DNA of 64,000 nt, taken from NCBI GenBank assembly GCA_050013255.1, contig JBEKFP010000002.1, positions 1 through 64,000 on the forward strand, written 5' to 3'. Position numbers and translations under genes: made by a program. Shown piece by piece: positions 60,442 to 64,000 of this stretch (positions are counted from its first letter, which is position 1; every line of letters begins with the position of its first letter). Source of the DNA: Candidatus Bathyarchaeia archaeon. GTDB taxonomy: Archaea > Thermoproteota > Bathyarchaeia > 40CM-2-53-6. Under the pieces are notes generated by a model. The model was given only the letters and a program-made list of their open reading frames with translations. It did no database searches and was not told the DNA's origin.

Positions 60442-61428
60442 ATGATTAGCAGAACGGAGGCTCTCTGTAGGTCCATGAAGGTGCTTGTAACTGGTGGAGC
60501 TGGGTTCATTGGGAGCCATCTTGTAGAAGCTTTACTGGCGCATGGCGACGATGTTGTCGCACTGGACAACCTCAGTAGCGGTAGTTTGGATAACCTGCGC
60601 GAGTCGTCAAGCAAACCTGGCTTCAATTTTGTCGAGGCAGACCTGAAGAACTTTGGCGGATGGAATGAAGTCTTGGATGGAGTGAAACTGGTTTATCATT
60701 TCGCCGCCAATCCTGAGGTAAATGTCGGCGAAACCAACCCCGCCGTGCATTACCAGGAGAATCTTTTCGCAACATTCATGTTGCTGGAAGCGCTTCGCAA
60801 GAGCAAGGGTGCAAAGCACATCGTGTTTGCCTCCACTTCCACAGTGTACGGCGAAGCGTCTAAACTACCCACCCCTGAATCCTACGGGCCACTTTTGCCC
60901 ATCTCTACGTACGGTGCATCCAAGCTAGGCTGCGAGGTTCTCCTCAGCTCATACTCATATACGCATGGGATGCGCGCTCTAATCTTACGCCTTGGCAACT
61001 GCGTCGGTTCACGAGCAAGACACGGCGTCGTAGTGGATTTTATAAAAAAGCTGAAAGCGGATGCCACCGCATTAGAGATCCTAGGCGACGGAACCCAGAA
61101 AAAATCCTACCTCCACATCGAAGACCTCCTCGACGCGGCCGGGTTCATTAGGGATCGTTTCTTATCCTCTGAACAACGTGTCGACGTCTACAACCTCAGT
61201 TCGGCGGACCAAATCACCGTCAAACGCATCGCTGAAATTGTCGCCCAACAAATGGGCCTGCATGGAGTAAAGATGAATTTTACAGGGGGCGTCGACGGCG
61301 GGAGGGGATGGTTAGGGGACGTCAAACAAATGCACCTCTCCATCGGAAAACTGCGAAGGCTGGGTTGGACTCCGAAACTCAACAGCGAAGCCGCAGTACG
61401 GAGGGCGGCGAAGGAGCTCTTGGCCTAG
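60442..61428 (+). CDS. NAD-dependent epimerase/dehydratase (likely start 60475)
   Basis: TGGAGFIGSH, STSTVYG, YGASK. Confidence 0.92.
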   Translation: MISRTEALCRSMKVLVTGGAGFIGSHLVEALLAHGDDVVALDNLSSGSLDNLRESSSKPGFNFVEADLKNFGGWNEVLDGVKLVYHFAANPEVNVGETNPAVHYQENLFATFMLLEALRKSKGAKHIVFASTSTVYGEASKLPTPESYGPLLPISTYGASKLGCEVLLSSYSYTHGMRALILRLGNCVGSRARHGVVVDFIKKLKADATALEILGDGTQKKSYLHIEDLLDAAGFIRDRFLSSEQRVDVYNLSSADQITVKRIAEIVAQQMGLHGVKMNFTGGVDGGRGWLGDVKQMHLSIGKLRRLGWTPKLNSEAAVRRAAKELLA

Positions 61429-62159
61429 TGTCTAGACCGCAGAAATCCCAACTTATCATTACCCTCCCAGTCTACAGAGACGTAGCGTTCCTTGAGAAGA
61501 CAGCTGACGCCCTCCAAGAGATCACGCCCTCTATCTCGAAGGATTTCATCCTCTTGATCGCCGAAGACGGGTCCAACTCTTCAGAAATAGTTGAGAGACT
61601 CCGAACGAAATACCCAAACATCATCTACTTTCAAAATGATCGCAGATTGGGTAGGGGGAAGGCACTGCGGGAGGCTTGGAAGAAAGTCCGAGGCAACATT
61701 TACGCCTATATCGACGTGGACCAGGCGACAGATGTCACGAGACTAAATGCATATGCGAACCTAATCAATCTACAAGGGGACTTTGACCTCGTTACTGGGT
61801 CACGGTATATTGCAGCGTCGGTAACAGCGCGCCCTTGGCTTCGAAGAACCGCATCAATTGCATACAACTGGTGGGTTCGAATGATGTTCCGGACCGGGGT
61901 TCACGACCACCAATGCGGATTCAAGTCCTTCTCACGTGAATTAGTTGAACGACTGGCCATTGAGGCCAAGAGCGATTCTTGGTTCTGGGATACAGAGGTT
62001 ATCGTTCTCGCTAGGAAATTAGGGTTTAAAGTAAAGGAAATACCGATCTACTGGACCGAGAAAAAGGGGCGAAGAACGCCCGTCAAACGTCTACTAAAGG
62101 ACATATGGCTTCATGGAATCGGGATGCTGGGCCTGTTTTACAGGATCTGGCTCTGTTAA
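61428..62159 (+). CDS. GT2 dolichyl-phosphate glycosyltransferase-like protein; last three codons supplied by the inserted element
   Basis: EDGS, GRGKAL, DVD, GSRY, DHQCGFK, WFWDTE; GTG start at 61428. Confidence 0.88.
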   Translation: MSRPQKSQLIITLPVYRDVAFLEKTADALQEITPSISKDFILLIAEDGSNSSEIVERLRTKYPNIIYFQNDRRLGRGKALREAWKKVRGNIYAYIDVDQATDVTRLNAYANLINLQGDFDLVTGSRYIAASVTARPWLRRTASIAYNWWVRMMFRTGVHDHQCGFKSFSRELVERLAIEAKSDSWFWDTEVIVLARKLGFKVKEIPIYWTEKKGRRTPVKRLLKDIWLHGIGMLGLFYRIWLC

Positions 62160-63427
62160 CTTGTCGGCGGACGTCGTTTAGTTTCATCCTCCTGTCAACG
62201 CTTTATTGTTCAGCCGAAAGAGGCCAGTCGTCGACACAACCTTGCTTGCGGTCAAGGCGGTTCAGCAAAACTATACGCCGAACAGCCAGCTACTCGCCTT
62301 GCTTGAACAGTTCCGGCAAATGGTCAACGACTCCATTAGAATCGGACTCGCCGAGAACGTTACCAGCCTCAAGTCACTCTCCACCAAAGCTTACAATCAA
62401 CTTGCAACCTACGATGTCATGAGTTACTACAAACTCTGCGCAATCAGCAAAGCCACAGGCATCCTCAAGAACTACAGGAAAACGGAACGAAGAGGTAAAC
62501 GGGTCAGCAGGCCCTACGCCCGAAGACCGCAACTCACAACATGCTACGGATTCAAAATAAGCAGCGGAAACCTCCTACTGCCCATCAAGCCGAGGAGCAA
62601 TATCAGAATCCCCCTAAATCGTCATACGTTGCAGGTTCTTTCCGAGACTCGCCTAACGGCTCGATCGGTCACCCTCACCGCGAGCACAATTACCGTGGCC
62701 TACTCGAAAGATGTCCCAACTTTGGAACCGAGCGGATTCATGGCTATAGATAGGAACCTTGACAACGTGACAATAGCCGACTCAAACGGCTCAATCACGC
62801 GGCATAACCTATCAGAGGCTACGGAAATCAAGGCCATGTACCGTGAAGTGAAATCCCATCTGAACCGTAACGATTCCCGCGTAAAGCAGAGAGTCTACGC
62901 AAAGTACGGTATGAGGCAGCGTAATCGCGTGAGGCAACTTCTCCACCTAACCTCGAAACAAATTATCACAGAAGCTAAGAGTAGTAAGTCGGCGATTGTG
63001 ATGGAACGACTGACAGGAATACGCAAACTCTACAGGAAAGAGAATGGACAGGGTCGTAATTATCACGCAAGGATGAACGGTTGGAGCTTCGCGGAGCTGC
63101 AAAGGCAGGTTGAGTATAAGGCTAGATGGGAGGGCTTGCCTGTAATCTACGTGAACCCGTATGGTACTTCAGTGAAGTGTTCGATATGTGGGTTAAGAAT
63201 GAAACCCGAAGAGAACCGAACATTGAAGTGCCGTTCTTGCGGATTCACGGTAGACCGTGACGTGAATGCTGCTAGGAATATTCTAGCGGCTGGTATGAGA
63301 GCCCTGAGGTTCGGGGCCGTCGCGCCTGCAAGTGAAGCAATGGTACAAGAACCCCAGCGTAGGGTAATCTTGAAAGTCGATGCAGACGAGTTGACCGACC
63401 GGCATCCGCCGACAAGTTAACAGAACC
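62149..63427 (+). mobile_element. Non-autonomous TnpB-only element with 23-bp IS6-like TIRs and 8-bp TSD
   Basis: TIR-L GGCTCTGTTAACTTGTCGGCGGA (62149-62171); TIR-R reverse complement GGTTCTGTTAACTTGTCGGCGGA (63405-63427); CAGGATCT at 62141-62148 and 63428-63435. Confidence 0.92.
62206..63420 (+). CDS. tnpB: RNA-guided endonuclease TnpB (alternative start TTG 62242)
   Basis: RuvC I AIDRN, RuvC II VMERL, CSIC/CRSC zinc finger, RuvC III DRDVNAARNI. Confidence 0.93.
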   Translation: MFSRKRPVVDTTLLAVKAVQQNYTPNSQLLALLEQFRQMVNDSIRIGLAENVTSLKSLSTKAYNQLATYDVMSYYKLCAISKATGILKNYRKTERRGKRVSRPYARRPQLTTCYGFKISSGNLLLPIKPRSNIRIPLNRHTLQVLSETRLTARSVTLTASTITVAYSKDVPTLEPSGFMAIDRNLDNVTIADSNGSITRHNLSEATEIKAMYREVKSHLNRNDSRVKQRVYAKYGMRQRNRVRQLLHLTSKQIITEAKSSKSAIVMERLTGIRKLYRKENGQGRNYHARMNGWSFAELQRQVEYKARWEGLPVIYVNPYGTSVKCSICGLRMKPEENRTLKCRSCGFTVDRDVNAARNILAAGMRALRFGAVAPASEAMVQEPQRRVILKVDADELTDRHPPTS

Positions 63428-63447
63428 CAGGATCTACATAGCCTAGC
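63290..63447 (+). ncRNA. Predicted TnpB omega/reRNA (scaffold overlapping the tnpB 3' end plus flank-derived guide); limits approximate
   Basis: Hairpins at 63301-63317 and 63346-63372; CTGCA/TGCAG pairing (63326/63381); position follows the known TnpB reRNA arrangement. Confidence 0.6.
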
Positions 63448-63503
63448 ACGGCTACATGACGTTTAAACTTCCATTCAGTCAGACATATTCGGGCTGAGTT
63501 CAG

Positions 63504-64000
63504 TTGACACCAGTGACGGAGCTAAGGGAAATCGCTCTAGGCAAACTGGAGGAGCTGGCTCCGGCGTCTCAAAGGGTAGCCATCTGCGAATATGGGCCCT
63601 CAGTCTATGCAAGACCAGGCTCGTACAAGGGTCAAGACGTTATGGTTGTATGCGAAAACTACGCAAATGGGCTGCGAGCCCATCTTAGGGTTATCGAAGG
63701 GCATGAAATTAGGTTCCTAATAGCCGATCGGGATCTGCTAGAGTCAGATATCAAAAGGGGGACGCTCGGTGATTTCATCACCGAGAAATTCCTGTACCCC
63801 CATCGCCCACTAGCGAATAGCGAATACGTCGAAAAAATAAGCACCCAAGCTAAGACGCGCGTCGTGAAGGAAGAAACCCGAGACCTCGTCGTGGAGTACG
63901 GTGAAATGTGCCGCGGCTTGGTTGCGAAACCGGAGTTCTTCGGCATTTCGCGAATGAGGAAGCGAGCACGCGTTTTCATGCCCAGCATGGCTGATTATCT
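63504..64000 (+). CDS. Hypothetical protein with nucleotidyltransferase-like N-terminus (partial, runs off window)
   Basis: Open from TTG 63504 or GTG 63513 to the end: AICEYGPSVY...DVMVVCE...D..RGTLGDF. Confidence 0.65.
   Translation, partial: MTPVTELREIALGKLEELAPASQRVAICEYGPSVYARPGSYKGQDVMVVCENYANGLRAHLRVIEGHEIRFLIADRDLLESDIKRGTLGDFITEKFLYPHRPLANSEYVEKISTQAKTRVVKEETRDLVVEYGEMCRGLVAKPEFFGISRMRKRARVFMPSMADY

Follow-up and report, generated by a model that had tools for sequence, protein, structure and literature searches.

The window, a 64,000-nucleotide stretch of a Candidatus Bathyarchaeia archaeon contig, contains a 1,279-bp element (62149-63427) that has 28-nt terminal inverted repeats (TIRs) and is flanked by a perfect 8-bp target-site duplication (TSD), CAGGATCT; its cargo is a single intact tnpB gene and it encodes no transposase. 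We consider it probable that this is a non-autonomous element with IS6-like ends in which the guide-RNA scaffold finishes in the right TIR (TIR-R), the guide begins with the TSD, the degenerate motif W-T-R directly 5' of the TSD acts as the TAM, and the nuclease cuts the empty site. TnpBs associated with DDE transposases have already been published; our search of the full-text literature (main texts) found no report of an IS6-TnpB link or of IS6 ends on TnpB elements.

A tnpB element with IS6-like ends

The element has inserted three codons upstream of the natural stop of a GT2 glycosyltransferase gene (Table 1). The present stop is a TAA within the left TIR, and the C-terminus of the product now reads ..RIWLC* as opposed to ..RIYIA* without the insertion. 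In a relative with 92% identity (locus L105 of G014) the ortholog is uninterrupted and collinear: its C-terminus is ..YRIYMA*, the gene end reads ..CTGTTTTACAGGATTTACATGGCGTAG.. and the octamer is present once. This gives independent backing to the empty site that the initial annotation had reconstructed, CTGTTTTA|CAGGATCTACATAGCC. At the left junction ..CTGTTTTA is followed by CAGGATCT and then by GGCTCTG.., the start of the element, while at the right junction the terminal AGAACC is followed by CAGGATCTACAT. Read directly at 63428-63447, the right flank is CAGGATCTACATAGCCTAGC, as that annotation had given it. A TIR with an exact 8-bp TSD is also found at seven further places in the same genome, where the elements include ωRNA-only MITEs of about 350 bp, and in many relatives, so the architecture exceeds chance. 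A 9-bp or offset TSD, which would place the motif discussed below inside the duplication, conflicts with the invariant last base of the element, C.

Table 1. Features of the tnpB element and its insertion site (positions in the window)
Feature	Position	Strand	Evidence or remark
GT2 glycosyltransferase gene disrupted by the insertion	61308..62159	+	Pfam Glycos_transf_2, E = 2.5e-13
TTTA, directly 5' of the left TSD	62137..62140	+	last three bases, TTA (62138-62140), candidate TAM
Left TSD copy, CAGGATCT	62141-62148	.	present once at the empty site of G014
Left TIR (GGCTCTGTTAACTTGTCGGCGGACGTCG), IS6-like	62149-62176	+	inverted-repeat search: 28 nt, 89% complementary
tnpB, 404 codons counted from the first TTG	62206..63420	+	Pfam Cas12f1-like_TNB, E = 2.5e-24
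ωRNA (reRNA) scaffold	63280..63427	+	covariance model R1, E = 6.4e-30
Terminal hairpin of the scaffold	63390..63421	+	covariation helix 6
Right TIR (TIR-R), terminal AGAACC at 63422-63427	63400-63427	+	
Right TSD copy, CAGGATCT	63428-63435		
Predicted guide template: right TSD (63428-63435) and flank ACATAGCCTAGC	63428..63447	+	

The TnpB protein has the features expected of an RNA-guided TnpB nuclease and matches the NCBIfam model guided_TnpB with 131.8 bits against a cut-off of 100. The alignment of its homologs starts at about residue 12-13 (TTG at 62242), the D/E/D triad of RuvC-I, -II and -III is intact in the translation (MAIDRN, VMERL and DRDVNAA), as is the CxxC..CxxC zinc finger (CSICG..CRSCG), and the stop codon lies 7 nt from the right end of the element.

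IS6-like DDE transposases are encoded in the same genome by separate elements (G000:C1:182371-185509, with its transposase at 183284-184531, and C2:559197-562269, about 3.1 kb each), which have TIRs beginning GGTTCTGT.. and 8-bp TSDs. The transposase matches Pfam DDE_Tnp_IS240 (PF13610) at 4e-16 with 59.8 bits (cut-off 27), and its best NCBIfam family is IS6, at 114.8 bits just under the cut-off of 125; one same-genome IS6-like transposase has an in-frame TAG. Some DDE-bearing relatives have TIRs that start GGTTCTGTTGCG.., which we take to be close to the bacterial IS6 consensus, and the left and right TIR tips differ, position 3 being C in 13 of 23 left ends and T in all 23 right ends. The window element has the IS6/IS26-like TIR start GG(T/C)(T/A)CTGT and the 8-bp TSD, encodes TnpB only and no IS6-type DDE enzyme, and has a TIR of which just the outer 11-16 nt are shared with the same-genome transposase elements; it is at most a non-autonomous IS6-like derivative. 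No IS6-type DDE transposase was detectable in the four related genomes that are richest in these elements, and the transposase-only elements (the two of 3.1 kb and a 445-bp MITE) gave only TIR-level matches to the ωRNA (E > 0.04). A solo TIR-like site (G000:C2:479453) was discarded as a candidate autonomous element because it has no transposase downstream.

The family resembles IS6/IS26 (PMC6807381) in its TIR starts (GGTTCTGT / GGCACTGT), its 8-bp TSDs and a transposase that is matched best by IS6/IS240 DDE models. It differs in that the window element has no transposase and in that its autonomous relatives, of about 2-4.7 kb, carry extra ORFs and a 416-aa transposase with an N-terminal zinc-finger region; according to Harmer and Hall, archaeal 'IS6' members are only distantly related (PMC6807381). 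Altae-Tran et al. (2023; PMC10691335) described the DDE-associated TnpB branches DDE-1 to DDE-6 together with solo TnpBs that have the same ends, and a later review names ISL2, IS630 and IS1031 as the DDE families concerned (PMC13565253). As in those branches, the TnpB here is enclosed by inverted terminal repeats and its 3' end falls within the last 250 bp of the transposon, and a transposase acting in trans presumably moves the solo copies. Unlike in those branches, ωRNA-only MITEs are frequent, and tnpB and a transposase never form one unit (0 of the 30 TnpB loci checked). IS200/IS605 elements have neither terminal inverted repeats nor a target-site duplication (PMC13565253); the absence of both, together with a Y1 HUH (or serine) TnpA, defines the IS200/IS605 and IS607 families, and the 28-nt TIR and 8-bp TSD seen here, in a set of 27 insertions, thus place the element outside them.

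The scaffold, its right boundary and the predicted guide

The case for the scaffold is one of covariation and not of folding energy, which is unremarkable for the single sequence (z = -1.41). Among 73 sequences 94.7% of the cells are paired, compared with 27-42% in slid controls, and double changes are seen in 24 of the 32 pairs; this level of covariation was reached by none of 500 shuffles. Covariance model R1 finds matches in 32 of 59 family genomes, and an Rfam scan of 62000-63600 returned no relevant family. The scaffold covers the whole of TIR-R as well as the final 141 nt of tnpB. The initial annotation had placed the reRNA scaffold across the 3' end of tnpB and into TIR-R, with both the stop codon and the scaffold end inside that repeat, and this holds: the TAA at 63418-63420 is part of the GTTAAC of TIR-R.

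The same GTTAAC (63416-63421, positions -12 to -7 of TIR-R) forms the 3' arm of the terminal hairpin, the 5' arm being GTTGAC (63390-63395). Pairing of an upstream GTTRAC with these TIR-R positions is found in 95.8% of the cells in the 73 sequences, with compensatory changes in five of the six pairs (pair types such as CG:32/GC:26 and UA:54/CG:13), the terminal helix having been left out of the model that was used for the alignment. Mismatches of both the G-U and the C-A type occur, the MFE fold of the single sequence contains the hairpin as well, and AGAACC alone separates its 3' arm from the flank. Pairing within a terminal inverted repeat could, alternatively, be a feature that operates at the level of the DNA. 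The loop is variable in sequence and in length among the copies. A guide located inside the TIR, in the variable region that separates the conserved GAGTTRAC from the TIR tip, was considered and rejected because that region is the loop of the covariation-supported hairpin, with a length of 9 to about 30 nt.

A comparison of about 70 relatives indicates that the guide RNA runs through the right end. Of 60 relatives compared over their last 24 nt, 57 end in ACAGAACC with no more than one mismatch, an invariance that is in part a product of ascertainment, as the covariance model contains those positions; the flanks beyond ACAGAACC are unrelated and conservation ends precisely at ..AGAACC, which is exact in 19 of 22 copies. 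We infer from this boundary, from the motif that abuts the TSD and from the precedent of ISDra2 that the guide starts at the first TSD base. In ISDra2 the reRNA consists of the right end of the transposon and about 16 nt of flank, and the TAM is the insertion motif (PMC8612924); by analogy, the length of guide used in the present element would be about 16-20 nt. Since the 8-bp TSD is duplicated, the first 8 guide bases also occur at the left junction, which retains TTTA together with eight guide-matching bases, as had been pointed out at the outset.

A one-sided motif 5' of the duplication

Among 27 independent insertions, each validated by its TSD, the three bases 5' of the duplication are W at -3 in 25, T at -2 in 26 and R at -1 in all 27; the TTA at the window insertion conforms. 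G does not form part of the motif at -4, and with three degenerate positions the information content is low. The initial annotation had read a TAM-like TTTA at the left junction and expected it to recur 5' of the TSD in other copies. A conserved, orientation-specific motif does occupy that place, but it is W-T-R and not a fixed TTTA, which is found at a minority of the insertion sites. To the right of the element the mirrored positions carry a much weaker signal (A at +2 in 15/27, Y at +1 in 16/27; Fisher, left versus mirror, p = 9e-4 and 3e-4). A guide beginning with the TSD requires a TAM directly 5' of the TSD, which is where W-T-R sits, and this position in turn supports a guide that begins at the first TSD base; W-T-R, found against the TSD in 24-27 of the 27 insertions, is, from its sequence context, a candidate TAM for TnpB.

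The transposase might instead have imposed W-T-R through an asymmetric target preference on these ends, in which case the motif would not be a TAM and the guide could start at the TSD or elsewhere. We regard this as unlikely, although the transposase is not without influence. In a control set of 15 IS6-like elements that carry only the DDE transposase, T is enriched at -2 (15 of 30 ends, where about 25% would be expected), and A is enriched at +2 to the right of the ωRNA carriers; the transposase thus has a symmetric T..A preference, and the weak mirrored signal shows that part of the motif comes from it. Unequal left and right TIR tips could also bias orientation. Against this, R at -1 is universal and has no comparable mirror, T-R occurs at just 6 of the 30 DDE-only ends as opposed to 26 of the 27 left ends of ωRNA carriers, and the target preferences of DDE transposases that make staggered cuts are usually symmetric. 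The proposal that the DDE transposase prefers sites just 3' of the TAM is likewise unsupported by the DDE-only ends. Given a DDE transposase without a strong preference for the motif, selection after insertion becomes the likelier cause, and retention or fixation of insertions is a more likely origin of W-T-R than target preference.

It is less likely still that the TnpB-RNA pair is a passenger with no role as a maintenance nuclease, either a relic or an RNA-guided regulator, that leaves the flank unused as a guide. Repurposed relatives of TnpB exist in the form of TldRs (PMC13565253), and several related genomes, such as G016, have ωRNA copies and no TnpB match. However, the catalytic triad and the zinc finger are intact, open TnpB frames have been kept across many genomes at 43-66% identity, the scaffold is under structural selection and the one-sided motif is hard to account for without TAM-dependent activity.

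A more elaborate possibility, to which we attach very little probability, is that TnpB-ωRNA tethered to the right end by nascent RNA biases IS6-like insertion through recognition of the TAM. Such a bias would explain why W-T-R is found beside ωRNA carriers but not beside transposase-only elements and, if real, would couple an RNA-guided nuclease to DDE transposition in a primitive way that recalls Cas12k-guided transposons; the same pattern is accounted for by simple post-insertion selection.

Fanzor-ωRNA systems are a relevant comparison in that they too place a TnpB-type nuclease in transposons with TIRs and TSDs (PMC13565253), where the geometry of TAM and guide must accommodate the duplication. 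Fanzor TSDs are short and sequence-specific (TA, TTAA) and form part of the TAM, with the 3' copy in the scaffold (PMC13565253). An equivalent arrangement here, with the 5' TSD in the TAM, the 3' TSD in the scaffold and a guide from 63436, has its precedent in Fanzor1 and Fanzor2 of TSD-making eukaryotic transposons (PMC13565253), but it is scarcely credible because the 8-bp TSDs are essentially random (no column is conserved across the 27 insertions, the best being A at position 4 in 16), so a TAM that is read by the protein cannot lie in the TSD, and the conserved motif is found outside it, immediately 5'.

A proposed cycle and its implications

In the reading that we prefer, with W-T-R as the TAM and a guide that starts with the TSD, transcription would run through the right end into the flank, and the guide would consequently be composed of the 8-bp TSD and roughly 8-12 bases beyond it (63428 to about 63443-63447). 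At an unoccupied site the target would be preceded by TTA, an instance of W-T-R taken as the TAM, and with the motif beside the target the TnpB-RNA complex would cut the empty allele; repair from an occupied copy may then reinstate or spread the element. The occupied locus would be spared: its right junction has a full match to the guide but it is preceded by ACC and not by W-T-R, and its left junction has the motif with only eight matches. The self-targeting problem that the initial annotation had raised is small: the left junction keeps the motif, but its eight matching bases make up much less than a full guide. Mobility would be supplied in trans by an IS6-like DDE transposase encoded elsewhere. 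The enrichment of W-T-R may have arisen mainly through TnpB-dependent retention or drive of the adjoining insertions, because only insertions beside the motif would gain that benefit.

The nuclease module has much in common with those of ISDra2 and IS608, of the IS200/IS605 type, and with solo-tnpB 'IS1341' (PMC8612924): a compact TnpB with the RuvC D/E/D triad and a zinc finger, a structured RNA that overlaps the 3' end of tnpB and extends to the right end of the transposon, a guide that is presumed here to derive from flanking DNA, a short motif at the TAM position, 5' of the insertion, and non-autonomous copies that rely on a transposase in trans. By this analogy, the module is taken to work as that of IS200/IS605 does. 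It is set apart from these modules by its TIRs, its 8-bp duplication, a presumed DDE transposase in place of the Y1 HUH enzyme and a last scaffold hairpin that is built from the TIR. Unlike a Fanzor, it has an unconserved 8-bp TSD and a motif that lies outside the duplication.

The biology of TnpB is established in IS200/IS605, where excision is scarless and makes no duplication, so that the guide targets the exact donor joint. In the present case the nuclease-RNA module sits in a DDE-type, TSD-making family that may never excise. Copy-in (cointegrate) transposition is known for IS26 and its close relatives only (PMC6807381); if these elements move in the same way then transposition leaves no empty donor site, and the benefit of the nuclease would have to rest on homing or on protection against loss. 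The proposed geometry, with a W-T-R TAM followed by the TSD as the first eight guide bases and then by flank, and with the right TIR doubling as the last scaffold hairpin, would, if true, represent an adaptation of the OMEGA module to another transposition chemistry. It would also mean that ωRNA-only MITEs are able to make use of TnpB supplied in trans, that a nuclease with a guide RNA can serve as a homing or anti-loss device and not as an aid to repair after excision, and that genome editing may profit from a compact TnpB of archaeal origin with a permissive TAM of three bases.

IS6-like ends around a tnpB gene

The element interrupts a GT2 glycosyltransferase gene 3 codons upstream of its natural stop, and that gene now ends at a TAA within the left terminal inverted repeat (TIR). 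In G014, a congeneric relative (92% identity over the end of the GT2 gene), the locus is uninterrupted, reads ..CTGTTTTACAGGATTTACATGGCGTAG.. with a single copy of the octamer and is collinear with both window flanks; two more distant relatives likewise show an uninterrupted locus. The target-site duplication (TSD) and the empty site reconstructed in the initial annotation are therefore real, and on re-reading the right flank, CAGGATCTACATAGCCTAGC, is exactly as given there. The encoded TnpB has an intact zinc finger and RuvC motifs, and the tnpB stop codon TAA (63418-63420) lies inside the GTTAAC of the right TIR (TIR-R).

Features of the element and of related copies in the same genome (G000, contigs C1 to C3)
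Feature	Position	Description
TnpB-carrying element	window 62149-63427	1,279 bp
Left and right TIR	window 62149-62176 / 63400-63427	28 nt each, 89% complementary
TSD CAGGATCT	window 62141-62148 / 63428-63435	exact 8-bp direct repeat
tnpB, sole gene of the element	window 62206-63420	Pfam Cas12f1-like_TNB E = 2.5e-24; NCBIfam guided_TnpB 131.8 bits (cut-off 100)
Second full-length TnpB element	C1:854024-855281	59% protein identity; TSD CGAACGAG/CGAACAAG
ωRNA MITEs, ~350 bp	C2:477462-477819, C1:668604-668959, C1:262180-262529	outside the window
Sister element, 725 bp	C2:82803-83527 (L012:304-1028)	18.8 kb past window end; GGTTCTGTTACC-type TIRs; TSD GGGCTAGG; 3' part of ωRNA
MITE, 445 bp	C1:681796-682240 (L013)	IS6-like TIRs; exact TSD CAAAAGTG; without R1-type ωRNA
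Transposase-bearing IS6-like elements, ~3.1 kb	C1:182371-185509 (L010:372-3510), C2:559197-562269
Transposase C-terminal fragments	C1:106726-107097, C1:1312711, C1:1095571, C1:1229584, C2:566078, C2:294582, C2:429131, others

Eight-bp TSDs and TIRs beginning GGTTCTGT are characteristic of IS6/IS26-like elements (PMC6807381). The presence of such ends around a sole gene, together with our finding no transposase within 1.5 kb of tnpB at the 30 TnpB loci examined in relatives, argues that the element is non-autonomous and carries a TnpB module between IS6-type ends. Altae-Tran et al. 2023 (PMC10691335) described DDE-associated TnpBs lying within inverted repeats, as well as solo TnpBs that share those ends, and the DDE families listed by a 2026 review (PMC13565253) are ISL2, IS630 and IS1031; our literature search found no published link between TnpB and IS6-type ends. 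TnpBs only 28-40% identical to that of the window, from other families of the same order (L031 in genome G060, L033 in G052), also lie between GGTTCTG.. inverted repeats whose two ends match at 22-23 of 24 nt, so that the association of TnpB with IS6-like ends looks old.

The 2.46-Mb genome (3 contigs) holds eight copies of the guide-RNA (ωRNA) scaffold against two intact tnpB genes. Five shorter derivatives (350-725 bp) have lost tnpB while retaining their ends and the final 130-290 nt, four of them with their own exact 8-bp TSD, and two additional 3'-end remnants (C2:426k, C3:219k) have no TSD-matched left end. The three ~350-bp MITEs combine IS6-like TIRs and exact 8-bp TSDs with an entire scaffold, lack tnpB and follow TTTG, TTTG and CTTA, so TnpB is probably supplied to them in trans. 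The 725-bp sister element has a 109-aa ORF that matches no Pfam family at E <= 0.01. The 445-bp element belongs to a second, unrelated MITE lineage with the same ends.

Both ~3.1-kb elements, unusually large for autonomous IS6-like elements, have IS6-like ends and a 416-aa DDE transposase whose best families are IS6/IS240 (Pfam PF13610, 4e-16; NCBIfam IS6, 114.8 bits, slightly below the cut-off of 125). The transposase also has a SWIM-type zinc-finger match at its N-terminus. On C1 the element carries four additional co-oriented ORFs (161, 92, 153 and 106 aa), none matching a Pfam family over its curated cut-off; the one on C2 lacks a TSD and has an in-frame TAG within the transposase. Their TIRs agree with that of the window's element over no more than the outer 11-16 nt. 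Many short fragments cover just ~50-120 C-terminal residues of the transposase and probably represent copies that have decayed or suffered internal deletions.

An RNA scaffold that reaches into the right end

Nineteen copies align well over their final ~150 nt, and folding that alignment with RNAalifold gave 26 pairs, of which 14 carry compensatory changes. The covariance model made from the same alignment (R1) matches the window at 63280-63427 (E = 6.4e-30); of 59 family genomes, 32 contain matches, and a single genome may hold as many as 44. Across 73 R1-aligned copies 94.7% of cells were paired and 24/32 pairs were changed at both partners; in 500 shuffles these values were never attained, and slid controls paired at 27-42%. 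A sixth helix, absent from R1, pairs GTTGAC (63390-63395, the hexamer after GATGNNNNNGA) with GTTAAC (63416-63421, TIR-R positions -12 to -7). It is 95.8% paired with five of six pairs compensatory, and its arms vary together (for example GTTACC/GGTAAC, GTCAAG/CTTGAC, GTTAGG/CTTAAC); in the 725-bp sister element the first of these combinations covaries with that element's TIR variant. The scaffold therefore extends into TIR-R, as had been proposed. No matching conserved hairpin was found at the element's left end, so the terminal hairpin is not merely a symmetric feature of transposon ends.

Between the last helix and the flank there is just AGAACC. Right ends read ACAGAACC with at most one mismatch in 57 of the 60 copies listed, next to unrelated flanks, an invariance that is partly ascertained because R1 includes those positions. 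Among 23 ωRNA-bearing elements the right tip GGTTCTGT is nearly invariant (21/23), but the left tip is variable: 8 elements have a base other than G at position 1, and 13 have C at position 3. Such a contrast is consistent with a double constraint, by transposase and RNA scaffold, on the right end alone, although ascertainment through the RNA model accounts for part of it.

A one-sided motif and the position of the guide

From 60 further copies we kept those with an identifiable left end and a TSD containing no more than one mismatch, which left 27 independent sites differing in TSD and flanks. Before the TSD, position -1 is G or A in all 27, position -2 is T in 26 and position -3 is A or T in 25, while G never occurs at -4 (0/27); no TSD column is conserved. 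The initial annotation had expected a conserved TTTA: a motif is indeed conserved and the window's TTTA (62137-62140) fits it, but what is conserved is W-T-R and not a fixed TTTA. The mirror positions are weaker (A at +2 in 15/27, C or T at +1 in 16/27), a significant difference between the two sides (Fisher p = 9e-4 and 3e-4). In 15 transposase-only IS6-like elements with TSDs, from which R1-type RNA is absent, T stands at -2 in 15/30 ends but T-R in only 6/30. A weak symmetric T..A preference thus seems to be contributed by the transposase, and the strong one-sided W-T-R is a property of elements carrying the guide-RNA gene.

The motif that licenses a target (TAM) must adjoin the guide-matching sequence. 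W-T-R lies directly against the first TSD base and the TSD shows no constraint, which fits a guide beginning with the TSD. In Fanzors the TAM includes the TSD, whose 3' copy lies in the scaffold (PMC13565253); the same two features argue against that arrangement here. In ISDra2 the RNA consists of the right end and ~16 nt of flank, and the TAM is the insertion motif (PMC8612924). On the motif's position and this precedent, the guide most likely runs from 63428 to ~63443-63447.

The self-targeting problem raised earlier is geometrically real but probably trivial in practice. The left junction presents the motif and 8 guide-matching bases, diverging where the left TIR starts. A match as short as 8 bases should not license cleavage by TnpB/Cas12. 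The right junction matches the guide in full but follows ..ACC, which fits the motif at neither of its two best-conserved positions, a situation also found in IS605 elements. The observation made in the window is confirmed, and its interpretation is partly supported.

Mobilisation and a possible role for the nuclease

The most ωRNA copies among the relatives, 19-44 each, occur in four genomes of genus g2 of the same family (G073, G066, G027, G023; 89-95% complete), several with perfect TSDs and near-identical sequences. These four genomes gave no PF13610 (IS6/IS240 DDE) match at E <= 1e-5; autonomous elements that are unassembled or extrachromosomal, or a different mobilising enzyme, are possible explanations.

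IS26 transposes by a copy-in route whose cointegrates are resolved by recombination (PMC6807381). If the archaeal enzyme behaves similarly, transposition would never make an empty donor site. The nuclease would instead cut unoccupied copies of the site, on sister chromosomes, on incoming DNA or after rare precise TSD-mediated deletions, and repair would then restore or spread the element. Such a benefit would be limited to insertions that chanced to follow W-T-R, which would account for the motif's enrichment with no TAM-seeking by the transposase.
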